64,000 nt of DNA, taken from a virus. The stretch lies in IMG/VR virus record IMGVR_UViG_3300035698_019437, positions 64,001 through 128,000 of that record. The stretch is one strand, 5' to 3'. Positions within the stretch are counted from its first letter, which is position 1. Each line of letters begins with the position of its first letter. This document shows positions 1 to 64,000 of this stretch, piece by piece. Both the position numbers and the translations under genes were made by a program. Below the pieces are notes generated by a model. It did no database searches. It was given only the letters and a program-made list of their open reading frames with translations, and was not told where the DNA came from.

Positions 1-3000
1 TTTGATGCATATCTGGATTCTGTAGAGTGTATCGATTTGAAAAATGTTGATATAGAGAAAATTCTGAAAGCAGTTGATGCTAAAGATATCAACGGACATG
101 CAAGTATTACTACTCGGTCGTTTACTAGTGGTATGTTGTTTGATGTCAGCGATCAAGTAAATAACAAACTAAAAGATCATGATAAGATTCCGTATATCAG
201 GTCGTTTGCTTTATCGTTTAACTTTATAAAAGAATACGTAAAAGCTGATAAGATCACTGGTATTGGCGTTCCTAATTTAGATATTAAAGATTTAGATGAC
301 AGTGATGTAGATAACTATGATGCATCTAGCGCTGTATTCGAAATAAGTGGTTCATCGGCTACAGAAGAAGATATAGATACGACTGCTGTTGATACACTGG
401 GGAATTTACCAGAAGGCGAATCGTCTGCTTCGTCAACATCTTCATCTACATGTACAGAATACAATTTTAATAATTACGAAGCTTATCCGTGTGGAATCCA
501 TAGAACAGTTAGCGTAGAAAAATTCACATCAGCAGAGTTGGATAGATGGAACACTGAACTATACGCAAATCCAGATTTTATGATGTTCTTTGGACAAAAT
601 AAAACGAATTGGAAAACTTCCGATGTAGAGATTTTACCCGGAGGTCTTTGCAGCACATTCTATGATGACTTCCAATATATAGATGCAAAACTACCTCCGG
701 GAGAATATACAATAGCGTATCAAGAAGGTGCTTTTAAATGGAAATCGACGCTTAATTGGTCATTACAAAGTCCGACGAGCGTATGTTCCGGGATATATTT
801 CAATTTTAATTGGGGTACCCCGACTACGCGAATAGAAAGACTGTCTCCTGGCGATAGAATCAAATATCCTTCCGTTGCTGCGCTAGAAACTGCGAACGAA
901 GGAGATGCTGCTTCGTTTATCCATATGGGTGGTCCAATAGGAATGTATGTTGTTGATCATACAACAGGCGGTAACGTATGCGATACTGATAATTGCCCGA
1001 CATATCAAATCAAGCCTACAAAACTGTCTGCTGTTATGATAGATCAATGGATAAAACCAGAAACATCAGGTATAAAATGGAATGTTATTACTCCTGTTAT
1101 GCACGGCTCGTTCTCAGCAAATACTAGAATATTCGTAGAGAGCTTTGGTATATACAGAACAGTTGATTCCGATCAAGAAGATAACAAGGAGCATAGCTTA
1201 GAAGGTTATGATAAATCATACTTTAATGATACTCTACTTGATTGTCTCAATATGTATATGTATAAAGGTATAGAATATTTGGCTGTAGAAACATCCGAAG
1301 AAATAACTCCAAGAGGGAATATATCTATAGCCACCAGACAGAATATTGATATATCTATTATGACTTCTACTGAATTTCAATACAACGGAATATCTTATCA
1401 CGAATTAAATGATGTTCCATATAGTTCATGGACAAAGTTAGGTATTGATAGAGAAGAAGCTACAGATATGTGGGATAAACTTTATGACGAAGATTGGACT
1501 AAAGTTGATCATTCTCTCTCAGGTATAGAAGTAGAAGACGAATTACCATGTCCAACGGACTCACTGATAGACAAAGCCACGTGTAAAGGGTATTTAGACT
1601 GGGTTAAAAAGAATCCTCTTATGTGTGATGGTAGAGACGAGTGCGAATCCGAATGTGAATCTGTTTTACGTGTAGATCAGGTTCCTTTAGAAAGATTGGC
1701 TTGGAAGAAGGGTAAAATATTAACTTCTATATCCGGAGCTTTAGAAATAGATAAAGAATCAAATAGTATTTTATCTGATATAGACATATCATTCGAAAGC
1801 AAAGAAGATTGGAAAGAATGGGCATCTAGGAAATCTTCAGAAAACAAAACTAATCCATTTGATTATGCGTTAGACATCACTCTGGACTATAACATATGTA
1901 CCATAGATTCTGATGATGATAACGATCTTACTTTGGTTATATTAGGATCGGATTGTCGTTCTAATTTTATAGACTTAATAAACCTAGATAACAATTCTAG
2001 TTGTAGAAATAATGACGACGAAATAAGAATAGATACACAAGTTAAAGTAGATTTAGCAGAACTTGGTAAGGTTGGCATTTTTGGAGATTCTATAAAAGAT
2101 GGAGATATAAAAGCTCAGGCAACTGTTATTAGTTCTGAAAAATTCTTTAAATACAGAGCTTCTGGTCCTATATCATCCGTTGTCTATACAGACACATCTA
2201 ACTTATTAGTATTTTATGAAGATGATAAAAGCAACATATCCGTCTCTGTATCACCTGACGGAGGCGATACATGGTACGATCATTACGGGATTGTTAGGTT
2301 ATTAAAGAAAGAAACTGCGACAAGACCTTATGCGATTCTTAACAGACGAACTAATGTTATCCATTTGTTTTTCATCTATAATCATAAATATATGGTTGTG
2401 AAGAACTTCTCAGGCAGTATGTTTAGTATTGTTGATGCTTTTGTAAGACCAAAAGCCTTAGACGAGTTTACAGTAACAACCGAAGACAATAAGAATCTTG
2501 AAGATTTATCTGAATTAGGCGCAGCTATACGCCTAGACGATATTGTTGTTATAGACGGTCCAAAAAATTCTACTGAGAATATAAACAAAGAAAATGCCAT
2601 AAGTCTAAAAAGAATTTCTAACGGTTTACTGCCCAGAATTATACTCTCTAGAGATGTTGGAGATGTTTCTGGTACTAATTACGATGATGCTCCATTCTCT
2701 GCGTACTATGACGATAAAGATATACTACGTTTGTTTTATGTAGATGGAGAAAAAACATTTGTTAAAAGTTCGTACGACGATGGGGATACATGGTCAGACA
2801 CATTAAATGGAGTATATTTCCATATGGCTAAACCAGAGAATACTACTGAAGAAACAAATGAAATGAAAGACTATTATAGGAATCAATCGTTTGTTTGTGA
2901 ATCAAATAACGAGTTTTCTGATATCATAGTCTGTTCTTCTCCGTTTTCGATAGAAGGTAAATGTATTCCATCCTTAGACGAAGCTATTCCAACTCGATCA

Positions 3001-3489
3001 GATGAGTTTGAAAATGAAGATGTTAGTAAGGCATGTACCAATGTTGAGGTTATTTCACAAATTCAAACAGTATATGATATTTTAACAGACAAAACTGAAG
3101 TTTTGTTTACCCTTAAAGGTGGGTTATATACCAGAGAAATAGAAAATAGCGTTTTCGATTTGATAGAAGGAATTGACATAGATACTGATGAAAATAGTAA
3201 AGAAGGAACTATACAATACGTAGCAAATAACATGTTCAATTTAACCTCGTTATCTAACAATAAACCTCTATGGATAGCGGGTAACAAGCCTGAAGATGAT
3301 TCGCTCTATGTAGTAATCGAGTCTGACACATACCCATCAGAAAGAAGTAATATAGTTGCAGACACAATACAGCCTAATGGGTATTTTAATTCGACTAGAG
3401 TTCTTAAGGTTTATTACTTTGACGTTAACAGAGACATATGGAATGTTACTATAGAGCCTCTATATGAAATACGTACGGAGAACACATAA
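1..3489 (+). CDS. Large putative virion/tail-associated protein (5'-truncated) with Ser-rich linker and BNR/Asp-box repeats
   Basis: Frame 1 is open from base 1, so the true start lies upstream of the window and the TTG at 37 is not necessarily the start. Asp-boxes SVSPDGGDTW (2245-2274) and SSYDDGDTW (2767-2793); acidic composition; heads a run of structural-looking genes. Confidence 0.6.
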   Translation, partial: FDAYLDSVECIDLKNVDIEKILKAVDAKDINGHASITTRSFTSGMLFDVSDQVNNKLKDHDKIPYIRSFALSFNFIKEYVKADKITGIGVPNLDIKDLDDSDVDNYDASSAVFEISGSSATEEDIDTTAVDTLGNLPEGESSASSTSSSTCTEYNFNNYEAYPCGIHRTVSVEKFTSAELDRWNTELYANPDFMMFFGQNKTNWKTSDVEILPGGLCSTFYDDFQYIDAKLPPGEYTIAYQEGAFKWKSTLNWSLQSPTSVCSGIYFNFNWGTPTTRIERLSPGDRIKYPSVAALETANEGDAASFIHMGGPIGMYVVDHTTGGNVCDTDNCPTYQIKPTKLSAVMIDQWIKPETSGIKWNVITPVMHGSFSANTRIFVESFGIYRTVDSDQEDNKEHSLEGYDKSYFNDTLLDCLNMYMYKGIEYLAVETSEEITPRGNISIATRQNIDISIMTSTEFQYNGISYHELNDVPYSSWTKLGIDREEATDMWDKLYDEDWTKVDHSLSGIEVEDELPCPTDSLIDKATCKGYLDWVKKNPLMCDGRDECESECESVLRVDQVPLERLAWKKGKILTSISGALEIDKESNSILSDIDISFESKEDWKEWASRKSSENKTNPFDYALDITLDYNICTIDSDDDNDLTLVILGSDCRSNFIDLINLDNNSSCRNNDDEIRIDTQVKVDLAELGKVGIFGDSIKDGDIKAQATVISSEKFFKYRASGPISSVVYTDTSNLLVFYEDDKSNISVSVSPDGGDTWYDHYGIVRLLKKETATRPYAILNRRTNVIHLFFIYNHKYMVVKNFSGSMFSIVDAFVRPKALDEFTVTTEDNKNLEDLSELGAAIRLDDIVVIDGPKNSTENINKENAISLKRISNGLLPRIILSRDVGDVSGTNYDDAPFSAYYDDKDILRLFYVDGEKTFVKSSYDDGDTWSDTLNGVYFHMAKPENTTEETNEMKDYYRNQSFVCESNNEFSDIIVCSSPFSIEGKCIPSLDEAIPTRSDEFENEDVSKACTNVEVISQIQTVYDILTDKTEVLFTLKGGLYTREIENSVFDLIEGIDIDTDENSKEGTIQYVANNMFNLTSLSNNKPLWIAGNKPEDDSLYVVIESDTYPSERSNIVADTIQPNGYFNSTRVLKVYYFDVNRDIWNVTIEPLYEIRTENT

Positions 3490-24984: not shown

Positions 24985-25776
24985 ATGTACATTATAAATA
25001 TGAAGCAGTATTATGAGATTATAGTAAATCCTAAGCAGGATGCATATCTTAACATAGTTGTTTTGTGTCATAACAACGTCAAAGTTACGCAAGATTTTTT
25101 GCGCCTTCTGTATAGGAATACCCCATCGGATGCATTCAATCTTATGATGATAGATAATGATTCTTCTGATTCAACTCCAACATTTTTGTCTGAATACTTG
25201 AAAGAAAAAGACAATGCTACTTTAGTACTTTCTAAAGAAAATTTAGGTGTTGCAGGTGGCAGAACGTTAGGATGTAACCTGTGTATGAAACAGAGGATAC
25301 AACCAGAGTTTGTTATGTTTATAGACAACGATCAATTCGTATTAGAGGGTTGGCTAGAACAACACATTGGAGTTATGGGGAGAGGTTACGATCTGGTAAG
25401 CGTAGAAGCATGGCAAATGGATAATAAGTTTTTCCCAATCAAGAAAAATACGCATTTATCTGAACATTTCGCTTATGTGGGAGGGGGAGGCATGATAATA
25501 CGTAGGAATGTGATTGAGTCTCTTGGTATGTTTGATGAACAATTTTATCCAGCATACTATGAAGACCCTGATTACTGTTTTAGAGCATATGACGCTGGAT
25601 TCAAAATAGGATGGAATATAAAGTCAAAAATAGTGCATATGGCTCACCAGACTCTTGGAGCTAATCAGCAGGAAAAACAAAAAGTCTTTCTTCGCAGTTG
25701 GAAAAAATTTAGGGACAAGTGGAAGAACAGAAAGCTTCCTACTATAAGGCAGATAGATTTGCCGGAATTTAAATGA
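24985..25776 (+). CDS. Glycosyltransferase family 2
   Basis: IVVLCHN, IDNDSSD, ENLGVAGG, FIDND (DxD), GMFDE..YYEDPDYC..AGF motifs. Confidence 0.9.
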   Translation: MYIINMKQYYEIIVNPKQDAYLNIVVLCHNNVKVTQDFLRLLYRNTPSDAFNLMMIDNDSSDSTPTFLSEYLKEKDNATLVLSKENLGVAGGRTLGCNLCMKQRIQPEFVMFIDNDQFVLEGWLEQHIGVMGRGYDLVSVEAWQMDNKFFPIKKNTHLSEHFAYVGGGGMIIRRNVIESLGMFDEQFYPAYYEDPDYCFRAYDAGFKIGWNIKSKIVHMAHQTLGANQQEKQKVFLRSWKKFRDKWKNRKLPTIRQIDLPEFK

Positions 25777-26918
25777 CAGATAAATTTAAACTTGTTATAG
25801 CAGCTAATCACAGTTTTCCTCATGTAGGAGGTACTGAGGTAGTCATCCAAAACATTGCTGAAAGTTTTGTCAACGACTTTGATTGTGAATGTACCATAAT
25901 AAGTAGAGTATTAATAGAGAAAAAGATTTCTCAAAATGGTGTAGAAATAGTGAAATGCGGTATAGATGCTAATGCATTTAGGGATCAACTTGTTTCCATC
26001 TCACCAGACCACGTTTTTATATATAGCGATTGCTTTAGATATTGGCCGGATATTTTGAATAGTAATAAGTTTACAGATTCGAAATACAGCATCGCTCTAG
26101 TGGGTATGAATAATATGTTGTCAGGGAATAAGAGTTTATTTTATAAATTCAAAAGGAAATACAATCAATATAATGTGATTACACATTCAGACAACTATCA
26201 AGATTACATGTATTGTCAAGATGCGGATATACCCGTTCATGTTATACCAAATGGAGTTTCTATCAAAGAGTTTGACGTAGACTCTTCTGACTTTCGTAAA
26301 AAACACAAAATAGATACTGAGAAAATTGTTCTTTGTGTATCTAACTTCTTTCCCGGTAAGGGTCAGGAATATCTGTTACCGATACTTGACAAACTATATC
26401 AACAACGACAGGATTTTACTGCTGTATTTATATGCAGCACCGTCAATTTTTATGTAGCGAATAATATTAGAAACAAATTTAGACAGATGTTAAAGCGTGC
26501 TAAATTCCCTTCTAAAGTAATATCTGATGTAGCTAGGAAAGAAGTATTAGAGGCTTACAAAGAGGCAGATGTTTTTGTTTTCCCATCGCAAAAAGAAGTA
26601 GCTCCAATAGTGATACTGGAAGCTATGGCTTCTGGGACTCCTTGGGTAGCGATGCCAGTAGGTAATATTGGACAGCTTAAAGGAGGTAAGCAAGTTCCGT
26701 ACCGTTCTAAGGATGCAGAGGGATTTGCTACCTACAATGCAGAGTCAAATGATTATTTTGTGAAATACCTATATGACATATTATCCGATGATCATCTGAG
26801 AAAACAACTTGGAGACGAAGGTAGGAAAGAAATAGAAGAAAAATATTTATGGGAAAAAATTGTTCCTATATATCATGAATTATTCACTTTAGGCACTAAA
26901 TATGAAGCCACTAGTTAG
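25773..26918 (+). CDS. Glycosyltransferase family 4 (GT-B)
   Basis: PHVGGTE, VIPNGV, KGQEYL, ADVFVFPS..E..PIVILEAMASGTP motifs. Confidence 0.92.
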   Translation: MTDKFKLVIAANHSFPHVGGTEVVIQNIAESFVNDFDCECTIISRVLIEKKISQNGVEIVKCGIDANAFRDQLVSISPDHVFIYSDCFRYWPDILNSNKFTDSKYSIALVGMNNMLSGNKSLFYKFKRKYNQYNVITHSDNYQDYMYCQDADIPVHVIPNGVSIKEFDVDSSDFRKKHKIDTEKIVLCVSNFFPGKGQEYLLPILDKLYQQRQDFTAVFICSTVNFYVANNIRNKFRQMLKRAKFPSKVISDVARKEVLEAYKEADVFVFPSQKEVAPIVILEAMASGTPWVAMPVGNIGQLKGGKQVPYRSKDAEGFATYNAESNDYFVKYLYDILSDDHLRKQLGDEGRKEIEEKYLWEKIVPIYHELFTLGTKYEATS

Positions 26919-27648
26919 CGTTATAACAACTTTATACAATTGCGAGAAGTATGTTCGTGAATCTCTGGAATCAATTGTAGAACAAGATTTCAAAGATTTT
27001 GAATTTATCATAATTAATGATGGTTCTACTGACGCTACTTGGGATATTGTAGAATCCATAAAAGATGATAGAATAAAGCTTTACGACTATAAAGACAATA
27101 AAAGAATTCCTACTAGAAGGAATCAAGCTATAGATTTTGCGAAAGGCAAATACGTCGCTATCCACGATGGTGATGATATAAGTATAAGAGGTCGATTGAC
27201 TGCTCAAGTAGAAAGTCATGAGAGTTACGATAATTTGTTTTGCTTGGGTGCTCATGCCGCTAAAATCAACGTTGAGGGAGAAACCACTGGGTTTATGACA
27301 TACCCTCCAGTCAATCATGATAATATTGTGAGATCGTTTTTACGTAGTATGAATCCCATGATAGACCCGACTACAATGTTTAAGAGAGAGGACTTTCTAG
27401 AACTTGGGGGCTATACATTGGACAAGAGTATTTATACGGTGCCAGATTTGCATCTGTGGACAAGAGCAGCATTGAAGGGATTGAGATTTCATAATATCCC
27501 TATATCGCTGATAAAATATAGGATCAACCCAAATGGTGTTACTAGGAGTCATGCCAAGGAAATGCAATCAGCACATAGCAGGGTACTGAGAGGGTATTTC
27601 GAACAGTTTATTAAGCAAAATAAGATAAGAAATGCGAGGAAACGCTGA
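26902..27648 (+). CDS. Glycosyltransferase family 2
   Basis: PLVSVI..YN.EKY, IINDGSTD, AKGKYVAIHDGDDIS motifs. Confidence 0.92.
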   Translation: MKPLVSVITTLYNCEKYVRESLESIVEQDFKDFEFIIINDGSTDATWDIVESIKDDRIKLYDYKDNKRIPTRRNQAIDFAKGKYVAIHDGDDISIRGRLTAQVESHESYDNLFCLGAHAAKINVEGETTGFMTYPPVNHDNIVRSFLRSMNPMIDPTTMFKREDFLELGGYTLDKSIYTVPDLHLWTRAALKGLRFHNIPISLIKYRINPNGVTRSHAKEMQSAHSRVLRGYFEQFIKQNKIRNARKR

Positions 27649-54039: not shown

Positions 54040-54111
54040 GTCTATATGCCAAATGCTTTTGCCGATACACTAAATTAGTAATACTTGATAACTAATTCGA
54101 AGGAGAAACTA

Positions 54112-54459
54112 ATGCACGACAACCAAGTAGATGATTCTGGAAATAGTAAGCATCCTTTTATCAATTCAGAAGACCCGAAGTTGTTACTTATAAAAGGTAA
54201 TTTGACAAAAGAGAAATCAAAAGATTATGTCAAGAAGGTAGCCAATGCTATTAACAAAGTAATTAGCAAGCATGAGACGGCTATTCTAAGATGTGTTGGC
54301 GCTGCGTCTGTTAACAATGCAGTCAAGGCGACCATCATTGCATCTGGAGAAGCCAAAAAAAGAGGAGATGATTTAGCAATTGTTCCAAGCTTCCATAACG
54401 TAAATTTTGATGGTGTGGGAGAGAAGACCTCTATAGTATTAGAAGTTAGGAAAATTTGA
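54112..54459 (+). CDS. spoVS: SpoVS-family (Alba-like) protein
   Basis: KVANAI, LRCVGAASVNNAVKA..IA, PSF; AAGGAG RBS supports ATG at 54112. Confidence 0.82.
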   Translation: MHDNQVDDSGNSKHPFINSEDPKLLLIKGNLTKEKSKDYVKKVANAINKVISKHETAILRCVGAASVNNAVKATIIASGEAKKRGDDLAIVPSFHNVNFDGVGEKTSIVLEVRKI

Positions 54460-55060: not shown

Positions 55061-56983
55061 ATGAAAAAGAAGAAAAAGAAGACAAAGAAGACAAAGACAA
55101 ATAAAACTGATCTAATCAGTAAGGCTAGAGTAAAGCTAGAAAGAATATATAAGAAAATACCAGATACTCAGGGATGTATGGAGAATTTGAAGAAGGAAAA
55201 TGGTTGTAGTGCTTGGTGCTGCGTTGCGGCTGGAACTAAAGTATATACTCCTTCTGGATTGATACCGATTGAAAACTTATCTGTCGGTGATCCTATTTTT
55301 ACTAAAAATGGTTTGAGTAGAGTTGTCAGAACAGGTAATAGGTTTATCAAGGAACATATTTTAGAGATAAAAACGTGCTATGGCAGAACAATCAGGCTTA
55401 CAAAAGATCACAGAGTATTTGTAGATTTGATAACTAGAAAAAGTAGGTATGTATATGATAAATCGGAATTTGTAGAATCTGAGTCGTTAATTCCTAAAAC
55501 GGGTAAAAACGACCCTGGTCATTATGTAATTTTTCCAAAGATAAATATAAGAGAGAACGATAATCCGATTTATATTCAAGTAAACAATTTCGCTGATGTT
55601 TTTGTTTGCAATGAGGGGGATGATCTTTCAAAAGATTCTGAATATTGTTATGCTTCATCTGTTAAAAGAGGTCGTAAAATCAAGAAAAATATTTTGTTAG
55701 ACCCCGATTTTTGCTGGGTGCTGGGGTTATATCTAGCTGAAGGGTCTGTTTCTACAGATAGTGTAGATTTTCATATTAGTTCTGACGAAGTAGATTTATT
55801 AAGTAAGTTAGAAAAGTTTGCTAAATCTTTGAATGTTTACTGTTCTAATAAAATTAATATAGGGAAAAGTAAAACTGTTAGAATTTTTAGTAGGGTATTA
55901 GCTAGATTTTTTAAGAATGCGGGTGGTTCTGGCTGTGAAAACAAAAAACTTGATGATAGACTTTTCAAACTTATTGTATCAAAAAAAGAATTAAGAAACT
56001 CATTTCATCAAGGATTATATGCAGGAGACGGAACAAAAAAACTTTATAAAAATTTAAAATATGCTTATACTACTACTTCACGGAACTTAGTTGATCAGGT
56101 CGTATTTTTAAATTATCTAGATAATGAAATTCCTATAGTTCATCGTACACGAAGATATAATAGAAAAGATTCTTTTTCTATATCTATCTCTAAGGGTAAG
56201 TTTAAGGATTATGTTGAAACCGATAATGATTTTAGGGTTCCTGTGAGAGATGTAAAAACCGTGTCATACGATGGTTTAGTTTATGATATTGAGGTCGCTC
56301 ACGGAGAATCTTTTTTGACTGAGGCAGGAGAAATACATAATTGTCAGATACAGTCTCCACAGGTTCTATATGCTGAATTCCTTAATGGTTGGCAGTTTAT
56401 TCTAGATAACTGGAAGCCTGTTGATATTATAGAGCTTGTAAGAAGGTCTCTTAATACTTATGTAGATAATAAACCCACTAAAGGGTGTGTTATGTGGGAT
56501 TCTGAGTCTAAGCTTTGTTTGAGTCATACGACTAGACCGTTTAGCTGTAGAATGTATGGTATTATTCCTGCTGAAGAATTTGCTTCTAGAATAGCTAGAG
56601 TAAAAGAGCAACTTAAGGATAAGAAAGATGCCGTTATCCATGATCAATGTGTTTTGGTTAGTACAGTTAGCGGAGAAAAAGTATCTACCATACAGACTGA
56701 TATTTGGATGGATCAACTAACTCAAGTGGAAATGTTCATAGGCGTTCCACGTCATAGCATTCATGATCAATTTGGTGGTAGTTACAGAACATATCATGAT
56801 CATGTATTAATTCATCTTTTTCCTGATGATGTGATGCAGAACCTTTCTATAGTAAGGGTACAAGGAACGGATGAAGAAAAGGAAATTGTTGTAGAAAAGT
56901 TAACTAATCACTTTAGACAAAGAATGTTTAATATATTCACTGAAGGTGAAGAAAGTGGCAAAACAAACACAGAAGAGAGTTAA
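55061..56983 (+). CDS. YkgJ/FliB-family (CxxCxxCC-type) Zn/Fe-S protein interrupted by an intein
   Basis: Exteins LE.IY..IP..GC..GC..WC | CQ..SP.V...E..C..WD....C..H..RP.SCR.YG; spliced product 266 aa. Confidence 0.85.
   Translation: MKKKKKKTKKTKTNKTDLISKARVKLERIYKKIPDTQGCMENLKKENGCSAWCCVAAGTKVYTPSGLIPIENLSVGDPIFTKNGLSRVVRTGNRFIKEHILEIKTCYGRTIRLTKDHRVFVDLITRKSRYVYDKSEFVESESLIPKTGKNDPGHYVIFPKINIRENDNPIYIQVNNFADVFVCNEGDDLSKDSEYCYASSVKRGRKIKKNILLDPDFCWVLGLYLAEGSVSTDSVDFHISSDEVDLLSKLEKFAKSLNVYCSNKINIGKSKTVRIFSRVLARFFKNAGGSGCENKKLDDRLFKLIVSKKELRNSFHQGLYAGDGTKKLYKNLKYAYTTTSRNLVDQVVFLNYLDNEIPIVHRTRRYNRKDSFSISISKGKFKDYVETDNDFRVPVRDVKTVSYDGLVYDIEVAHGESFLTEAGEIHNCQIQSPQVLYAEFLNGWQFILDNWKPVDIIELVRRSLNTYVDNKPTKGCVMWDSESKLCLSHTTRPFSCRMYGIIPAEEFASRIARVKEQLKDKKDAVIHDQCVLVSTVSGEKVSTIQTDIWMDQLTQVEMFIGVPRHSIHDQFGGSYRTYHDHVLIHLFPDDVMQNLSIVRVQGTDEEKEIVVEKLTNHFRQRMFNIFTEGEESGKTNTEES
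55220..56341 (+). mobile_element. Intein with LAGLIDADG endonuclease (374 aa)
   Basis: N-junction CVAAGTKVYT..G..PIE.L.VGD; block B LTKDH; WVLGLYLAEG and FHQGLYAGDG; C-junction VYDIEV...SF....IHN/C. Confidence 0.95.
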
Positions 56984-57296
56984 GGTAGTTAGTTGTGAAT
57001 ACCATAGCGATAAAAACCTTGTAGTATGGACTGTTCAACCTCTGGACGAAGATAAACCTATTAAAATGGCATTTAAAAGTACTGAGTTAGGTGCTGCTGT
57101 AGGAATATCAGGATATATCCCACCAGATGCAATAGAAAAATTCTGTAAAGAAATTACAGGGAAAGAGATTAATTGGGTTCATGAAGTTACCTATGAAAAT
57201 TCTCCTTCTTTAGATGATGTTAGTAATGAAGACTTAGCAGAACAAGTCCATGAGTTAGATAGTTATCCATATGAAGAGATTGAGGACTTGGAATGA
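56946..57296 (+). CDS. Hypothetical protein
   Basis: GTG start; fills the gap; ATGA overlap with the next gene. Confidence 0.6.
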   Translation: MKKVAKQTQKRVKVVSCEYHSDKNLVVWTVQPLDEDKPIKMAFKSTELGAAVGISGYIPPDAIEKFCKEITGKEINWVHEVTYENSPSLDDVSNEDLAEQVHELDSYPYEEIEDLE

Positions 57297-57604
57297 ATAT
57301 AATATTTTTCGGAAGTGATGATTGTAAAAAATGTATAGCTGCTATAGAAGAAATGAAAGAAACAGGTTTAGACAAACTTGCTTCTCATTTTCTATATGTA
57401 GATGCATTCGATGATGACAAACAACCATTATGTGATGAACATGATGTAGATAAATTGCCTCATGTAAAGGTATATAGTAACGGACAACTTGCATATGAAT
57501 CAGTTGGTTCGTGTGATATTGATAAAATAGGAAAAGTTTACGCTGAAGAGCGTGGCAAGATGAAAAAGTTCAATTTTTTGAAACGTCGAGGAAAGTCTGA
57601 TTGA
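57293..57604 (+). CDS. Thioredoxin-like protein
   Basis: FF.S..CKKC, YVD, V..LP fold motifs. Confidence 0.75.
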   Translation: MNIIFFGSDDCKKCIAAIEEMKETGLDKLASHFLYVDAFDDDKQPLCDEHDVDKLPHVKVYSNGQLAYESVGSCDIDKIGKVYAEERGKMKKFNFLKRRGKSD

Positions 57605-59511
57605 TGATCAATTTAAATTCGCAGCAGAAGAAAGCAGTTGAACACGAAGAAGGTCCATGTCTAGTTGCCTCTGTTCCCGGAAGCGGTAAAACAGCGGTTC
57701 TAGTAGAACGTACTGCTAGGCTTATAGAGAAAGGTGTAACGCCTTCGTCTATATTGAGTGTTACGTTTACTAATAAAGCATCTAAAGAAATGCGCAAACG
57801 AGTTACTAGTAGACTCGGTACTTCTAAAGTTGATTGTGTCATATCTACGTTTCATTCTTTTTGTGTAAAAGTTCTCAGGAATTATGGTTCGAATATAGGT
57901 TATGGTAGCAATTTTTCTATATTAGGTGATTCCGATCAAAAAGCTTTGATTTCTCAAATCGGCAAGAAGCTAGGTATTCCTAAGAAGAAAATCAATGCAT
58001 ATTCCATACTTTCTAAGGTAAATATATCCAGAGAGAATCTTGAGGAATTTATCGTTCTTGCAGCAAGATTCGATAACGATCCAGCATCATGGGCTATAGC
58101 TAAAGAATATCTTGAAGAGATGAAGAAGCAGAACGCTATTGATTTTAGTGGTTTGCTATATGAGACTGTTCAGTTATTCCAGAAGTATCCTAAAATTCTG
58201 GAAGCTTTTCAGAATACTTTTAAGTATATACAGGTAGATGAAACCCAAGATACAAACTACATCCAATTTTACATGATTAATATGATTGGAAAGAAACATA
58301 GAAACATTATGCTTGTTGGGGATATCGACCAGTCAATCTATGCGTTCAGGAATGCAAGATATCAGAATATCGTTGATTTCCTAGAAGATCATAAAGATTG
58401 CGTTCGTATTCCACTTGAGAAGAACTACAGATCGACTCCTCAGATTATTCGTGTTGCGAACAAGTTGATATGCCATAATTCTTCTCATATCGTAGATAAG
58501 TTTGAGACAGATAACCCTGATGGGCCTCCTGTTGTATATAAGGAGTTTAATGAGCCTCAAGACGAAGCTAGGTGGATCGCTTATAAGATTAACAAATTCA
58601 AAAATGAACTTGGGTATGATGGAAGCGATATAGCTATCTTCTATCGACTTAATAGGTTGTCTATGGATTTGCAGCCTGCATTACGTCATGCAAATATTCC
58701 TTTTGTAGTTATAGGTGGTCCCAGCTTCTTTGATAGGAAAGAGATAAAAGATTCGTTAGCTATGATGAGATTTCTGTCTAATCCTAAAGACGGTACTGCT
58801 TTTTACAGATTGATAGACTTGTTCGACGGTATTGGCGATGTAACTGCGCATAAGATACAAGAATTGTCTAGACAAAACGATATTAGTCTTATTGATGCTT
58901 GTAGGAAAGTAGATGGATTGACAAATAGGACTCCTATCCGTAAGGCAGCTAAAAGAATAGCAGATGTTTTCGATTTCGATTACAAGGCATGCAATTTGAC
59001 TCAGTGTTTCGATACGCTTATGAATAAACTTCGTTACAAAGATACTTTAGAATTGAAGTGCAAAACCGGCAAAGAATTTTTGGAAAGACAAGATAATATC
59101 GATTCCTTCGTCTCGGATGCAGTAGGTTTTACGAATAACAGTACAGCTAAAATAGATGATTATCTGAAGAACGTAAGCTTAATGTCTTCAGAAGATGGTG
59201 ACGCGGATGAGCAATCGATTAGTCTAATGACGTTCCATGCAGCTAAGGGATTAGAATTTCCGATAGTATTTACGGTAGGTGTCGAACAACAGATATTGCC
59301 TCATTATCTTGCTGTGGCTGATGCGACAGATGTTCAGTCTAAGAAAGAAGCCATAGAAGAAGAGAGGCGTATATTTTATGTTGGTATGACTAGAGCAAAG
59401 AAACATCTGAATATTTCTTCATGCAAATATCGCAGAGTACGTCAGCAAGGAATGTTCATACAACAATCAGGATTGCCTAGTCAGTTTTTAAAAGAATCTG
59501 GTTTAAGATGA
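57601..59511 (+). CDS. UvrD/PcrA superfamily 1 helicase
   Basis: LN.QQ..AV, PGSGKT, TFTNKA, TFHS, VDETQD, GDIDQSIY.FR.A, NYRS, MTFHAAKGLEF, EEERR.FYVGMTRAK. Confidence 0.95.
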   Translation: MMINLNSQQKKAVEHEEGPCLVASVPGSGKTAVLVERTARLIEKGVTPSSILSVTFTNKASKEMRKRVTSRLGTSKVDCVISTFHSFCVKVLRNYGSNIGYGSNFSILGDSDQKALISQIGKKLGIPKKKINAYSILSKVNISRENLEEFIVLAARFDNDPASWAIAKEYLEEMKKQNAIDFSGLLYETVQLFQKYPKILEAFQNTFKYIQVDETQDTNYIQFYMINMIGKKHRNIMLVGDIDQSIYAFRNARYQNIVDFLEDHKDCVRIPLEKNYRSTPQIIRVANKLICHNSSHIVDKFETDNPDGPPVVYKEFNEPQDEARWIAYKINKFKNELGYDGSDIAIFYRLNRLSMDLQPALRHANIPFVVIGGPSFFDRKEIKDSLAMMRFLSNPKDGTAFYRLIDLFDGIGDVTAHKIQELSRQNDISLIDACRKVDGLTNRTPIRKAAKRIADVFDFDYKACNLTQCFDTLMNKLRYKDTLELKCKTGKEFLERQDNIDSFVSDAVGFTNNSTAKIDDYLKNVSLMSSEDGDADEQSISLMTFHAAKGLEFPIVFTVGVEQQILPHYLAVADATDVQSKKEAIEEERRIFYVGMTRAKKHLNISSCKYRRVRQQGMFIQQSGLPSQFLKESGLR

Positions 59512-60209
59512 TATCTTACGAAACATTGATAGGAAAACACGATGGGGAGTCGGCATTTGTGTTTGGTGCTGGTACAAGTCTATTCGGAGTTGATCTTTCT
59601 CCTGTTCATAAACATATAGTTTTATGTGTTAATTCGAGCTTCATACTAATGCCGTGGAACGAGGGAGAACCAGATAGAAGGTATTGGTTATCTAATGATG
59701 CTTTAGTAAGAAGATGGACTTACTGGTCTAAAGTGAAGAAATCTAAAGCCATTAAAATAGTACGCGATAGTTGGAAGAAGTATGAAAAAGAGATAAGCGA
59801 CTTTCTTGTTTTTTCTCCTAGACCGACTAAGGAAAGTGTTATCAATCCAGATGATACTGGTTTGTGCTATTGTTCTAGCGTTCCAAGTAGTATAGATTTG
59901 GCAATACAAATGGGATGTAAAAAAATATTTGTAATGGGCTTGGATCAATATAAAGTTTCAGATCGCAGATATTTTTGGGAATTTATGCCAAGGAAAGAAC
60001 AGCCTACTTGGTCTCATGGATTTAGATATTTACCAAATTATGATCAGCAACTTTGGACGTTTGGTTTTGATAGACAAGCATATTCGGCGTTAGAAGAATT
60101 CTCGAAAATCAAAGGTGCAAAAATATACAATTGTAACATGATTAGCAAGATAGATTCGTTTGAGAAGATAACGTTTGATCAAGCTTTGGAGATCGTCAAT
60201 GGGAATTAA
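59508..60209 (+). CDS. Maf/DUF115 (MptE-like, sialyltransferase-like fold) protein 1
   Basis: KH.GE.A...GAG.SL, VN, D, SV....LAIQMGCKKI...GLD, IYNCN. Confidence 0.75.
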   Translation: MISYETLIGKHDGESAFVFGAGTSLFGVDLSPVHKHIVLCVNSSFILMPWNEGEPDRRYWLSNDALVRRWTYWSKVKKSKAIKIVRDSWKKYEKEISDFLVFSPRPTKESVINPDDTGLCYCSSVPSSIDLAIQMGCKKIFVMGLDQYKVSDRRYFWEFMPRKEQPTWSHGFRYLPNYDQQLWTFGFDRQAYSALEEFSKIKGAKIYNCNMISKIDSFEKITFDQALEIVNGN

Positions 60210-60708
60210 ATGGACACATTTCAAAGAAACATCCAAACATAAGTTTTGGGTTTCTTTTTATATAGTAAAGATATGTCTGAAGCTTCTTAAGAGAGCGATT
60301 GTTCATGACGATAGCAAATATTCAGGAGAAGAAGGTAGACTTTTCGCTTTATCAGTTCCTAAGCTTAGAGGTTTAACTTATGGCTCGGAAGAGTATAAAG
60401 ATATCTTAGCCAATATGCTCAATCCCGCAATCAAAAGTCATTATGCTAGGAATCGTCATCATCCGGAACATCATGATAATGGAATTAATGGCATGTCATT
60501 TATTGATAAGATAGAAATGGTGTGTGATTGGAGAGCAGCAACAAGAAGACATGATGATGGTTGTATATTTAAGTCTCTTGAAATAAATCAGAAACGATTT
60601 GGATATGATGATAGAGAGAAAGAATTGTTCTTGAGTATAGTAAAAGAATTGGAGAACGATAATGCAAAAAAGAGATACAATCAGGAGAAGATACACAGTG
60701 AGAGATAG
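60199..60708 (+). CDS. HD-superfamily (DUF5662-like) protein
   Basis: HK..V, HDDSK, HY..NRHHPEH, EMVCDW; likely ATG at 60199. Confidence 0.8.
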   Translation: MGIKWTHFKETSKHKFWVSFYIVKICLKLLKRAIVHDDSKYSGEEGRLFALSVPKLRGLTYGSEEYKDILANMLNPAIKSHYARNRHHPEHHDNGINGMSFIDKIEMVCDWRAATRRHDDGCIFKSLEINQKRFGYDDREKELFLSIVKELENDNAKKRYNQEKIHSER

Positions 60709-61018
60709 AGTATATAGAAAAAGTCATTTTCATAAATTCCCTTTCGATGCTATAAAGTATCGTAAAGATGAGCATGGGTATCAGACTGAATATCCTTTGA
60801 ACACATCCTTTGGTCTTGGCGGTCATGGATTTGCTGATGGAGTCTGGACTATTTCTATTATACATAAAGACTCTAGTGCGGATATATATGAATTGCCTGA
60901 TTATCTGCAATACGTTCTGAATACAGTTAGAGACTGGGGCAGAAGTGACGTTAAGAACGATCTGAGAGTCAAGCTAGAAGATGTAACAAGATTATTAGGT
61001 ATAGTCAATGAAGATTGA
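60662..61018 (+). CDS. Hypothetical protein
   Basis: Fills the gap; true start may be the later GTG (~60698). Confidence 0.55.
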   Translation: MQKRDTIRRRYTVRDRVYRKSHFHKFPFDAIKYRKDEHGYQTEYPLNTSFGLGGHGFADGVWTISIIHKDSSADIYELPDYLQYVLNTVRDWGRSDVKNDLRVKLEDVTRLLGIVNED

Positions 61019-61778
61019 AGAACTAGAAAATATGCATGCAGATTCTCCCCTGATATTCGTAACAGGATCAGGTCCATCTCTTCATGATGTTAATATTGAT
61101 ATGATTAAGGAATATCCTATCATATCTGTTAACTCTTCTATTATGAAGTTCGGAGCATTTGCGAATCATTTTGTTTCAGATGATATAGGTGCAAAAAACT
61201 GGAATTACTATACTCAAATACTTCCCAATATTCCATGTACCAAGTTGTTGTATAAAGACAAGTTGAAAATGCATGCTAAATATTTTGATAAAGATAAGGT
61301 AGTATTCTTTAAACATAAATGGTGGTTTTCTCCTAAAGAAAACAAGTACAACTCAAAAGGTCTTGTTTTGACCAAGGATGCGAAGGCTCCAATTGTAGGT
61401 GCTAGAACTTCTTTGGGTACTGCTTTACATTTTGCGTACATAATGGGCGGAGAAAATACGAGAATAGTATTATTGGGTTCTGATTGTTGTTACAGAGGAA
61501 ATAAAAGATATTTCTGGCAACTTGATGGTGAACCTCAAGTATTTAGAACTACAGGAGAACCAGTATTTTCTACTCCTAATAGGGGTAGGTATATGGGAGA
61601 GCCAGTAGATGCTCATTCTATGGACTTCCTTCAATATTGGAAAGCGTTTGTAAAACAAAATGAAGGTACTCCTAATCTTCATATTATAAATTCGTCAGGC
61701 GGCATTCTAGATTATTTTGAACGTATGCCTTTGGAAGAAGTGTTGATTAAATATGGAAACAAAAAGGAGCAAACATAA
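61008..61778 (+). CDS. Maf/DUF115 (MptE-like) protein 2
   Basis: VTGSGPSL, ISVN, SD, TS..TALHFAYIMG....IVLLGSDC, IINSS.G. Confidence 0.78.
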   Translation: MKIEELENMHADSPLIFVTGSGPSLHDVNIDMIKEYPIISVNSSIMKFGAFANHFVSDDIGAKNWNYYTQILPNIPCTKLLYKDKLKMHAKYFDKDKVVFFKHKWWFSPKENKYNSKGLVLTKDAKAPIVGARTSLGTALHFAYIMGGENTRIVLLGSDCCYRGNKRYFWQLDGEPQVFRTTGEPVFSTPNRGRYMGEPVDAHSMDFLQYWKAFVKQNEGTPNLHIINSSGGILDYFERMPLEEVLIKYGNKKEQT

Positions 61779-62526
61779 AATATTATCTGTAGTGACTGCT
61801 CGTGCTGATTCAAAAGGATTACCGGGTAAAAATTTCAAGATACTTGGGGGAAGACCTCTTTTTGAGTATTCTGTATTTGCATCTCTTGACAGCGAAAACG
61901 TAGGGTTGACAACTGTAAGTTCCAATTGTAACGAAGTAGAAAAATACACCAAGATCATGTTGAATAGGATGAATAGGAATATGGGGGTGTTGAATGATCG
62001 AATTTCTATGTTTAACGGTGGCGGTTACTTCATTGGTTGGTTAGAGTTTATAAGAAGGCCAGATGAATTTGCTGGTGATATGAGTAAGAACGAAGATGCT
62101 TTGATACACACTTATAATTATTGTAAAGACAAATGGAACTTCGATGCGGATATCATAGTCAATCTACAGCCAACATCTCCAATTCGCAATAATGGTTTGC
62201 TTGATAAATGTATAGAGAAATTCATAGATGACGATGCGGATAGTTTATTCACATCATCAAAGCATACGCCGTTCTTCTTCAAGGAAAGAGATGGATTAGT
62301 GGTAGCTGAATGGGATGTGAAAAACAGGCCGATGCGACAAGAAATTTCTGATTTTATGTTTCACGACAATGGGAATATTTATATAATGAAGAGAGACTTA
62401 TTATTAAGTGAAAGATGTAGATTGGGTGGTAAGATGATAATGATGGAAACTGATAAGTTTCAAAGCATGCAAATAGACGATGAAGATGATTTAGCTATCA
62501 TAGAAAATGTCATGAGCAGATTATGA
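61753..62526 (+). CDS. neuA: Acylneuraminate cytidylyltransferase (CMP-nonulosonic acid synthetase, NeuA/PseF/LegF family)
   Basis: ARADSKGLPGKN....GG.PL, RP.E.A.D, LQPTSP.R, NG.IY, IDDEDD. Confidence 0.9.
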   Translation: METKRSKHKILSVVTARADSKGLPGKNFKILGGRPLFEYSVFASLDSENVGLTTVSSNCNEVEKYTKIMLNRMNRNMGVLNDRISMFNGGGYFIGWLEFIRRPDEFAGDMSKNEDALIHTYNYCKDKWNFDADIIVNLQPTSPIRNNGLLDKCIEKFIDDDADSLFTSSKHTPFFFKERDGLVVAEWDVKNRPMRQEISDFMFHDNGNIYIMKRDLLLSERCRLGGKMIMMETDKFQSMQIDDEDDLAIIENVMSRL

Positions 62527-62819
62527 TTATTGTAGATATCGTATGGATAAATAAAGAAGATCACAGTGGTTTTGGTTCTATGGTAGCTCAAAAAATGGCA
62601 GATTATTTTCGTAGTCCTTATGGTTTTAGGACTCTATCTTATAAAGCAGATATCAAAAAAGAAAGATGGTTAGACCCTGATTATCACACTAAAGGTATGC
62701 AAGAGCCTAGATGCACTTTGTGGTACAAAGGGGATAAGCCAGATAATCACTTAGAAATCTCCGAAAAATTGAAAGATATAGTGAATAAACTGTTTTTCTG
62801 GGATGTTATTATGGTTTAG
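62523..62819 (+). CDS. Hypothetical protein
   Basis: ATGA overlap with neuA. Confidence 0.55.
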   Translation: MIIVDIVWINKEDHSGFGSMVAQKMADYFRSPYGFRTLSYKADIKKERWLDPDYHTKGMQEPRCTLWYKGDKPDNHLEISEKLKDIVNKLFFWDVIMV

Positions 62820-62889: not shown

Positions 62890-64000
62890 GTGTATACACA
62901 GTCAGATTTTTTCGGCAACGTAATCGATTTAGATTTGAAAAGAGGGGTTAAGAAAATAGACTTACTTGATGAAGGAAGAGAATCTTCTACTTTTAGTCTA
63001 TGGGACGAAGAATTTACTCTACAAGAAGTTTCTAGTTGGATATATGGCATACTGGGAAGCCGATTTGTTAAGTGGACTAAAACCACGGAAACTGAAAACC
63101 GGAAATTTGTTTTTGGACCAGAAGTAAGGGTGTGGATGAATAGAAAATCAAATAGAAACTTATCTTCTATTTTATTAGATACTGGCGTGAGCATAGAGCG
63201 TCAAAAACCATTTAGGAACTATTATGGAGGGACTTTAGTAGGCCCATCGCAGTCTAAGATATGGGCCTTTTTCCGTGAATCCGGTTTGAATAAATTTCTA
63301 GAACATTATTTATACGAGATGGATGGAGTAAAAATATATGAACAGTCAATCCCTGAGTTGAATCTTGAAAAAGAATATGAAAAGAATAGAAAATGTTTTT
63401 TAGGGGAAAATTTCTGCAATAGAAGTTTTAAACTAGGTATATCTGGATTGTCTTTAAGTTCGTCTTTAAATGTAAGTATATTAGATCAAGAAAATAAACT
63501 GCTAAAGTTAAAAACTGAAAAGCTTGCTAAGCGAAGTAAAAACTTATCGGATGTACCAATAGAAAATATAAGAATTGCAGCTAGAAATTCTCATTATATT
63601 CCAAGGATACCTGTATATATAGATGGCTATGCAAATCATGTATCGTTATTTAAAGACGAGATGGTAAATAACATGTCTGCTTTAGAAAATGTAGTACCTA
63701 AAAATATGTTAAGGCTAATAGAGAGTGAAGTCTGTTTGCACGGATTATCATCTACAAAAGAATCAAGGAAGTATCAAGCTTACAAGATAAGTAAAGAGCA
63801 TATTGTAGATAACTCATACTTACAAAATTTTTTGTTCTACCCTCATTTTGTTGAAAACATAACTTTTTTACCTGTCGGTTATAATTGTTCGCTACCTAAA
63901 TGGCAAAACGTAGAATCAGGAGTCAGGAAATCAGTAAAAACGATTAAAGACGGATGCTATTATGATTTTGACGAGTGGCGAGATTTAATATATGCTATTT
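62890..64000 (+). CDS. Hypothetical protein, 3'-truncated (absent from the ORF track)
   Basis: AGGAG RBS then GTG at 62890; manually translated frame (MYTQSDFFGNVIDL...) has no stop before the window end. Confidence 0.75.
   Translation, partial: MYTQSDFFGNVIDLDLKRGVKKIDLLDEGRESSTFSLWDEEFTLQEVSSWIYGILGSRFVKWTKTTETENRKFVFGPEVRVWMNRKSNRNLSSILLDTGVSIERQKPFRNYYGGTLVGPSQSKIWAFFRESGLNKFLEHYLYEMDGVKIYEQSIPELNLEKEYEKNRKCFLGENFCNRSFKLGISGLSLSSSLNVSILDQENKLLKLKTEKLAKRSKNLSDVPIENIRIAARNSHYIPRIPVYIDGYANHVSLFKDEMVNNMSALENVVPKNMLRLIESEVCLHGLSSTKESRKYQAYKISKEHIVDNSYLQNFLFYPHFVENITFLPVGYNCSLPKWQNVESGVRKSVKTIKDGCYYDFDEWRDLIYAI

Follow-up and report, generated by a model that had tools for sequence, protein, structure and literature searches.

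A putative module for nonulosonate synthesis, activation and transfer in an uncultured huge phage

The sequence analysed here, referred to below as the window, is a 64,000-nucleotide stretch of viral DNA: bases 64001–128000 of the 147,268 base pair (bp) IMG/VR record IMGVR_UViG_3300035698_019437. The record is a fragment (CheckV completeness ~29%) of the genome of an uncultured phage of ~500 kilobases (kb), and nearly all of its genes lie on the plus strand. Toward the end of the window, at 59508–62526, is a run of genes encoding two stand-alone proteins that resemble the catalytic domain of Maf, a flagellin glycosyltransferase, together with a NeuA-type synthetase of cytidine monophosphate (CMP)-activated sugars. 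A NeuB synthase and a HAD phosphatase lie just beyond the window. We propose, on the basis of sequence and structure comparisons, that these genes form a module for the synthesis, activation and transfer of a nonulosonate (a sialic-acid-like sugar), a reading to which we assign a probability of about 0.7.

Sialic-acid-like sugars are known to decorate the surfaces of animals and of some bacteria and archaea; for bacterial Maf enzymes, modification of flagellin is, to our knowledge, the only role on record. If the reading holds, an operon dedicated to making, activating and transferring such a sugar would extend nonulosonate chemistry to phages. The enzyme families involved are known; what is new is the carrier and the cut-down architecture.

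The module and its conservation in related phages

The genes assigned to the module are as follows (aa, amino acids).

59508–60209, plus strand: DUF115a, 233 aa, putative Maf/GT42-like CMP-nonulosonate transferase, apparently an accessory paralog
61008–61778, plus strand: DUF115b, 256 aa, putative Maf-like CMP-nonulosonate transferase, predicted core of the module
61753–62526, plus strand: NeuA-type CMP-nonulosonate synthetase, 257 aa (PF02348, CTP_transf_3, 37.4 bits; gathering score 22.6)
record 128113–128988, minus strand: NeuB, 291 aa (PF03102, 200 bits)
record 129057–129560, directly after NeuB: KdsC-type HAD phosphatase, 167 aa

An initial annotation, made from the letters of the window, had listed two Maf/DUF115-like genes, an HD-like gene, a NeuA/PseF-type gene and a FliB/YkgJ-family gene, and every one of these is present by position and family matches. 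It described the sugar genes as overlapping in one run; those at 59508–62526 do overlap consecutively, and the overlaps, of 4 to 47 bases, continue from a UvrD-type helicase gene upstream through a 98-aa open reading frame (ORF) downstream. The limits that it gave to the toolkit (55061–62526) stand for 59508–62526 but not for 56946–59511, which is occupied by a 116-aa ORF, a thioredoxin-like ORF and UvrD. Its statement that the window holds no NeuB synthase is literally true: NeuB starts 113 bases past the window end.

Related loci were collected by an IMG/VR scan seeded with a 15-sequence DUF115b alignment, which returned 23 loci on contigs of up to 498 kb, and synteny across them was scored by tblastn with the proteins of this phage. 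Relatives of DUF115b occur in all 23 loci, each of which was chosen by DUF115b itself, and the four most distant matches are 20–28% identical. The gene order SpoVS–194-aa protein–YkgJ–116-aa protein–thioredoxin–UvrD–[DUF115a]–DUF115b–NeuA–NeuB–HAD is found in ~19 of the 23, with DUF115a present as a separate gene in ~10. In most related loci NeuB comes directly after NeuA on the same strand, and stops and starts within the module often overlap; in the present phage NeuB lies in the opposite orientation to the operon, with the 98-aa ORF and a 408-aa ORF between it and NeuA. Five relatives (G001, G002, G003, G004 and G005, reached through loci L011, L021, L023, L017 and L014, respectively) were examined further, three of which (G001–G003; 488–499 kb) are complete. 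The record and G001 are collinear across the regions for tail, replication and sugar genes. The recurrent gene order marks DUF115b–NeuA–NeuB–HAD as an operon conserved among related huge phages.

Among GenBank phage records there was no match to the module (blastn) or to DUF115b (tblastn), and NeuB was found in two uncultured records only. In the literature searched for phage systems with nonulosonate, NeuB or DUF115, no module of this kind was described.

Putative transferases and the donor pathway

Both DUF115 proteins match phrog_4603, a family annotated as 'alpha-2,3-sialyltransferase' (E 1e-10 for DUF115a and 4.5e-10 for DUF115b). The MptE-like/DUF115 domain PF01973 is carried by most database homologs and scores 37.3 and 35.6 bits in the orthologs of the complete relative G001; its match to the two window proteins is weak (12.8 bits for DUF115a and 24.6 for DUF115b; gathering score 34.6). 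Because the two family profiles align with a probability of 100% (hhalign; E 2.8e-39, 21% identity), DUF115a and DUF115b are old paralogs. Each has more than 115 metagenomic homologs (137 for DUF115a) of near-equal length and 35–60% identity, many of them on contigs of 100–548 kb, and both families recur on the same contigs. If these proteins are what they appear to be, they would offer glyco-engineering a wide choice of soluble candidate sialyltransferases of compact size (~250 aa).

An AlphaFold (AF2) model of DUF115b, built from a 47-sequence alignment, has a mean predicted local distance difference test (pLDDT) score of 96.2. Its best match, both in Foldseek and in an exhaustive VIA comparison, is the catalytic domain of Maf from Magnetospirillum magneticum (5mu5, residues 261–516), with a Z score of 16.4 over 200 aligned residues at 3.4 Å (Foldseek E 3.4e-7). 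Weaker matches are the MptE/HPPK structure 8sd5 from M. jannaschii (Z 11.4 over 153 aa), SteA (9.4), the sialyltransferase Cst-I (2p56, 9.2), the mammalian GT29 sialyltransferases (8–9) and thiamin pyrophosphokinases (~7). A structure search had been put forward in the initial annotation as a check on its assignment, and the one run here on DUF115b thus ranks Maf above MptE, and MptE above Cst-I.

A second line of evidence comes from P0252, a longer relative that is a Maf-type protein, with 121 bits to PF01973 and a Maf_flag10_N domain (PF20157). The DUF115b profile aligns with P0252 over 222 columns (hhalign probability 96%, E 3e-9), pairing GSGPSL with GSGPSL, VSDD with VSID and LLGSD with LIGQD; D59 and D159 of DUF115b, near-invariant in the 47 sequences, align with Asp residues of P0252. 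Residues E324 and D415 of M. magneticum Maf, and D272, S334 and D357 of Clostridium botulinum Maf (CbMaf), are reported to be required for activity (bioRxiv 10.1101/2020.06.03.131540). The near-invariant D59, T134/S135 and D159 of DUF115b fit the CbMaf set D272/S334/D357 in order and, with similar values, in spacing, and the same is true of D64, S123/S124 and D146 in DUF115a. Fold and profile match therefore agree with the earlier description of two stand-alone Maf/DUF115-like genes.

The proteins are nevertheless not Maf proper. At 233 and 256 aa they hold the catalytic core only, with neither the Maf N-terminal domain PF20157 nor the C-terminal part. PDB sequence searches with DUF115a, DUF115b and the DUF115b profile gave chance-level matches only. 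In the Pfam search neither window protein matched the CST-I model PF06002, which is passed (gathering score 25) by two relatives of DUF115a, P0156 (28.4 bits) and P0192 (25.8 bits). Model and sequence together indicate that the DUF115 proteins are stand-alone Maf/Cst-like catalytic cores. With the Maf proteins of M. magneticum (5MU5), C. botulinum and Geobacillus kaustophilus they share the catalytic fold, genetic linkage to genes for a CMP-nonulosonate donor and, by profile alignment, the GxGPSL loop and two conserved acidic positions; they differ in consisting of the catalytic domain alone, in a sequence identity of ~15%, in the lack of a flagellar context and in occurring as a pair of diverged paralogs. 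The Campylobacter jejuni enzymes Cst-I and Cst-II (GT42) are likewise single-domain proteins of similar size and related fold, and a glycan rather than a flagellin acceptor would be common to both; the fold match to them is, however, weaker than that to Maf.

Each of the five relatives carries three to seven DUF115/MptE-like matches at several positions, including the glycosyltransferase (GT) island discussed below (G001:223566). Since there are this many matches per related huge phage, the DUF115 family has expanded in the clade.

The remaining genes of the module point to the donor. In the NeuA-type protein the PF02348 match exceeds the gathering score, as expected from the earlier assignment of a NeuA/PseF-type synthetase beside the Maf-like genes, although good alignment is limited to the N-terminal 50 residues; the score to PseF (TIGR03584) is 57.8 bits, under the cutoff of 205.7. 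The best solved relatives are all CMP-N-acetylneuraminic acid (CMP-Neu5Ac) synthetases, namely the mouse enzyme CMAS (1qwj, E 7e-15) and bacterial NeuA, and the translation contains SKGLPGKN, QPTSP and acidic C-terminal motifs, which we take to be typical of the family. NeuB scores 168 bits to TIGR03569 (cutoff 400) and 120 to PseI (cutoff 340). For the HAD phosphatase the best NCBIfam match is the Bacteroides-type phosphatase of 9-phosphorylated ketodeoxynonulosonic acid (Kdn-9-P), with 79.4 bits (cutoff 180), followed by the KdsC-type model TIGR01670 (HAD-IIIA, YrbI subfamily) with 61.2 (cutoff 107); the Pfam Hydrolase model gives 32.8 bits against 26.4, and solved relatives 3ewi, 4hgn and 3e81 are found at E 7e-20 to 1e-10, the best being the KdsC-like domain of mouse CMAS.

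The pairing of NeuB with a KdsC-type phosphatase argues for a 9-phosphate route and thus for a sugar of the Kdn or Neu5Ac type, an assignment that these family matches make rather more probable than its opposite. Mannose-6-phosphate (Man-6-P) is present in any host, and because of this availability Kdn is the most economical guess. Pseudaminic and legionaminic acid, named in the initial annotation as the sugars that Maf proteins transfer, are unlikely products. There is no DegT aminotransferase in this 147-kb record nor in the five relatives, which makes a phage-encoded route to either sugar unlikely; there is no SDR gene in the record; and a NeuC-like Epimerase_2 gene occurs in just one of the five relatives. 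The pseudaminic/legionaminic pathway was rejected accordingly. A search for neuB, neuC, pse or leg genes elsewhere in the genome, which the initial annotation had recommended, thus recovered NeuB and the KdsC-type phosphatase just outside the window but no DegT or SDR gene in the record. The one Epimerase_2 gene, NeuC/WecB-like and with an adjacent SDR gene, lies ~19 kb downstream of the module in G001 (G001:C1:231638–233358); the GT island of that phage also holds an added sulfotransferase (L011:19380–19997). On account of these G001 genes, the sugar chemistry seems to differ among members of the clade.

All four steps of the pathway that we envisage are assigned from family membership. NeuB would condense phosphoenolpyruvate with a phosphorylated hexose of the host, in the simplest case mannose-6-P to give Kdn-9-P, or N-acetylmannosamine-6-P (ManNAc-6-P) to give Neu5Ac-9-P. 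The HAD phosphatase would then remove the 9-phosphate, the NeuA-type enzyme would make the CMP-sugar, and the two Maf-like DUF115 proteins would move the sugar from CMP to a cytoplasmic acceptor. Of these two, DUF115b would form the conserved core of the transfer step, and its diverged paralog DUF115a, present in some lineages, probably adds a second residue, forms a second linkage or serves a second acceptor.

The same three enzyme types lie side by side in the Kdn pathway of B. thetaiotaomicron and act in the vertebrate Neu5Ac-9-P route. The former comprises a Kdn-9-P synthase, the KDN9P phosphatase BT1713 and a CMP-Kdn synthetase (Wang et al. 2008, as cited in PMC6200933), and it is the BT1713-type phosphatase that gives the best NCBIfam match to the phage HAD protein. 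Neither an epimerase nor an aminotransferase would be needed if Man-6-P is the substrate. The phage system differs in that its proteins score under the equivalog cutoffs, its NeuB is without a SAF domain, and its operon adds transferases and a GT island.

Candidate acceptors and alternative explanations

From the HAD gene to the end of the contig the record encodes DUF1257, a peptide deformylase, a radical SAM protein, a GT4–GT2 fusion, methyltransferases and ~8 more GT2/GT4 genes. The same kind of island, plus the sulfotransferase, is found in G001, and in neither island is there a multi-pass membrane protein. Neither the record nor the three complete relatives contain Bac_transf, WecA-type or Wzx genes, and lipid-linked export by phage-encoded proteins was rejected as a candidate on these grounds. 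Flagellin (Flagellin_N) is missing from the same four records, and a hydroxymethylase of the thymidylate-synthase type from the record and two of the three complete relatives; the sole match to the thymidylate-synthase family, in G003, has 418 bits and scores like an ordinary ThyA. The neighbours of the module are replication and sugar genes. With multi-pass proteins missing from the two islands, lipid-carrier, flippase and flagellin genes from the four records and a hydroxymethylase gene from three of them, assembly on a soluble cytoplasmic acceptor is the favoured interpretation.

Since the module is followed by a long series of genes for soluble GT2/GT4 enzymes and methyltransferases (and, in a relative, a sulfotransferase), the likeliest acceptor would be a glycan built by the phage on a soluble protein, probably one of the virion. 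The analogy of mycobacteriophages, in which phage-encoded soluble GTs glycosylate virion proteins in the cytoplasm (Freeman et al. 2023, as cited in PMC12619734), makes a virion protein the obvious choice, and we put it forward tentatively. Soluble GTs are common to both systems, but in the mycobacteriophages, as summarised in that source, ordinary GTs use host nucleotide sugars, with no nonulosonate synthesis or Maf-like enzyme; the virion target is shown there and is a suggestion here. A wider generalisation, for which the odds are rather poor, is that a clade of ~250–550-kb phages uses its own soluble cytoplasmic enzymes to build an acidic glycan containing Kdn or Neu5Ac, further methylated or sulfated, and attaches it to its own virion proteins. 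In that case the shortened Maf-like proteins would represent a new class of soluble sialyltransferase, whose acceptor specificity is independent of the flagellin-binding domains of Maf. If the operon does make and transfer a sialic-acid-like sugar, one may also ask what a huge phage gains from an acidic sugar coat, with shielding, adhesion and avoidance of adsorption to debris as possible roles.

Two proteins of this phage are rich in serine. The first (864 aa, G000:C1:27083–29677) contains a ~495-residue (SSSS[S]H)n tract, and the second, a 2389-aa tail-module protein encoded after the tape measure (G000:C1:60320–67489, extending into window 1–3489), a 66-residue (SSSSH)n-type tract. The two are real coding repeats, in which different Ser codons are mixed. 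Six-frame scans of G001–G003 found no such poly-Ser proteins; being missing there, these proteins, the only obvious Ser-rich candidates for the transfer to Ser/Thr-rich virion proteins suggested earlier, cannot be the conserved acceptor. A GT2–GT4–GT2 trio (window 24985–27648), the GT trio of the initial annotation, lies directly after the gene for a 2686-aa tail-module protein and is kept in G001 (174624–177367). Its position suggests tail-protein glycosylation that is independent of the nonulosonate module.

A number of observations weigh against the proposed module. Both DUF115 proteins of this phage fall below the PF01973 gathering score, and the fold they appear to adopt also serves pyrophosphokinases, as the matches to MptE and thiamin pyrophosphokinase illustrate. 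The mapping onto the catalytic residues of Maf derives from profile alignment and spacing and not from superposition. NeuB, which ends at 291 aa, shows no C-terminal SAF domain in the Pfam search (a 290-aa NeuB does exist in the PDB, as 6ncs). NeuB, NeuA and the HAD phosphatase are all far under the NCBIfam equivalog cutoffs (168/400, 58/206 and 79/180), such that the substrate cannot be read from sequence. The record represents ~29% of a genome, and absences in the record alone therefore carry little weight. To these may be added the lack of a conserved counterpart for the poly-Ser proteins.

The best of the alternatives, which we nonetheless regard as unlikely, is that the module caps or builds a glycan for export by the host, thereby remodelling the host surface (capsule, lipopolysaccharide or S-layer) and either preventing superinfection or keeping progeny from adsorbing to lysing cells. 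An island with at least eight GTs plus methyl- and sulfotransferases does resemble a polysaccharide locus, the module follows the replication genes and lies outside the head and tail operons, and seroconverting phage GTs provide a precedent (cited in PMC12619734). Against this stand the lack, in the record and the three complete relatives, of an initiating phosphoglycosyl transferase, a WecA-type enzyme or a Wzx flippase, and the makeup of the island, whose enzymes without exception look soluble; host carriers might conceivably be used.

It is less probable still that the Maf-like enzymes modify host flagellin, or some other surface protein of the host, so as to change motility or hide a receptor, the initial annotation having suggested modified host receptors as a means of superinfection exclusion. 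Among solved structures the closest is indeed a flagellin glycosyltransferase, and a gene of the YkgJ family, which contains FliB, is conserved a few genes upstream. However, the phage proteins lack PF20157 and the C-terminal part (233–256 aa, compared to roughly 600 aa), none of the four records examined encodes flagellin, YkgJ is a broad family, and three genes, including UvrD, intervene. The resemblance to flagellin-modification loci noted in the initial annotation is thus confined to the catalytic domain: it extends neither to the N- and C-terminal domains of Maf nor, in the record and three complete relatives, to any flagellin.

We know of no nonulosonate on DNA, and it seems very improbable that the sugars are attached to the DNA of the phage, where glycan hypermodification on hydroxymethylated bases would shield it from host nucleases. 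The module comes directly after replication and repair genes (RecA, primase, nuclease and UvrD), and published work describes GTs with which phages assemble glycans on DNA (Pyle et al. 2024, as cited in PMC12619734), but the hydroxymethylase expected of such a system is missing from the record and two of three complete relatives, the G003 match resembles ordinary ThyA, and the acceptors of the Maf, Cst and GT29 relatives are proteins or glycans. Equally remote is the view that the DUF115 proteins are MptE- or thiamin-pyrophosphokinase-like kinases whose adjacency to NeuA is coincidental: the Pfam family is named after MptE, and the HPPK of M. jannaschii is the second-best structure with thiamin pyrophosphokinases further down, but Maf scores higher over more residues (200 aa compared to 153), the NeuA–NeuB–HAD adjacency is fixed in ~19 related loci with stops and starts often overlapping, relatives pass the Cst-I model, the PHROG family is annotated as a sialyltransferase, and no pterin or folate genes adjoin.

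Neighbouring genes

The other genes in and around the proposed module are listed below.

55061–56983, plus strand: YkgJ/CxxCxxCC-family gene, 640 aa (PF03692, 18.7 bits), with matches to Hint, Intein_splicing and LAGLIDADG
55220–56341, plus strand: class-1 intein within it, 374 aa (Cys54..His-Asn427, +1 Cys428), with a LAGLIDADG homing endonuclease
56946–57296, plus strand: ORF of 116 aa, no family match; outside the sugar toolkit
57293–57604, plus strand: thioredoxin-like ORF, 103 aa; unrelated to sugar transfer
57601–59511, plus strand: UvrD/Rep-type helicase, 636 aa (PF00580, 253 bits; PF13361, 212 bits); outside the sugar toolkit
60175–60708, plus strand: DUF5662 protein, 177 aa (PF18907, 116 bits)
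60662–61018, plus strand: ORF of 118 aa, no Pfam, PHROG or NCBIfam match
62523–62819, plus strand: ORF of 98 aa, no family match
62890 to beyond the window end at 64000, plus strand: ORF of 408 aa, no family match

In none of the 23 related loci did tblastn find a counterpart of the DUF5662 protein or of the ORFs of 118, 98 and 408 aa, which are for this reason judged to be insertions private to this lineage and not parts of the module. DUF5662, located between the two putative transferases, was rejected as a component of the machinery since it is missing from all 23. It corresponds to the HD-domain gene of the initial annotation; the gene is where it was said to be and has an HD-like residue pattern, but it is a private insertion and gives no match to the Pfam HD domain. 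Residues H22, H44-D45, H89, H95-H96 and D118 (an H..HD..H..HH..D pattern) are invariant in 45 sequences, and the protein is probably metal-binding. The model (pLDDT 92.5) is all-helical; VIA matches are weak, with HD-GYP and PgpH HD domains at Z 4–6 (best HD-GYP 3tm8, Z 6.0), Foldseek with the model returned no match, and a PDB sequence search gave chance-level hits only. From the model an HD-like fold is plausible. The DUF5662 family comprises 2,259 representative clusters, mostly viral, and a search of the ESM Atlas returned DUF5662 clusters only.

The YkgJ gene is syntenic upstream of the module in ~18 of the 23 loci. An intein-free ortholog (L011:3562–4302) scores 28.4 bits to PF03692 (gathering score 23), and BLASTP against the 246-aa G001 ortholog, which has no intein, delimits two exteins, 19–61 and 428–611; the intein sits inside the Cys cluster of the protein (GCSAWC|CQ). 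The presence of a FliB/YkgJ-family gene nearby, reported in the initial annotation, is thereby upheld as to family and conservation, but the connection to FliB consists of gene order several genes upstream, with UvrD among the three genes that separate the two. We found nothing to tie this gene, which belongs to a broad family, to lysine methylation of an acceptor.

Further upstream, a SpoVS-family gene (window 54085–54459, 63 bits) heads the syntenic block in most related huge-phage loci. On the other side of the module, the radical SAM protein (L006:3720–4793; record 131720–132793) scores 203 bits to the AmmeMemoRadiSam model (cutoff 220) and is preceded by the DUF1257 protein (L006:2756–3190; record 130756–131190); radical SAM and DUF1257 genes follow the HAD gene both here and in several of the relatives.

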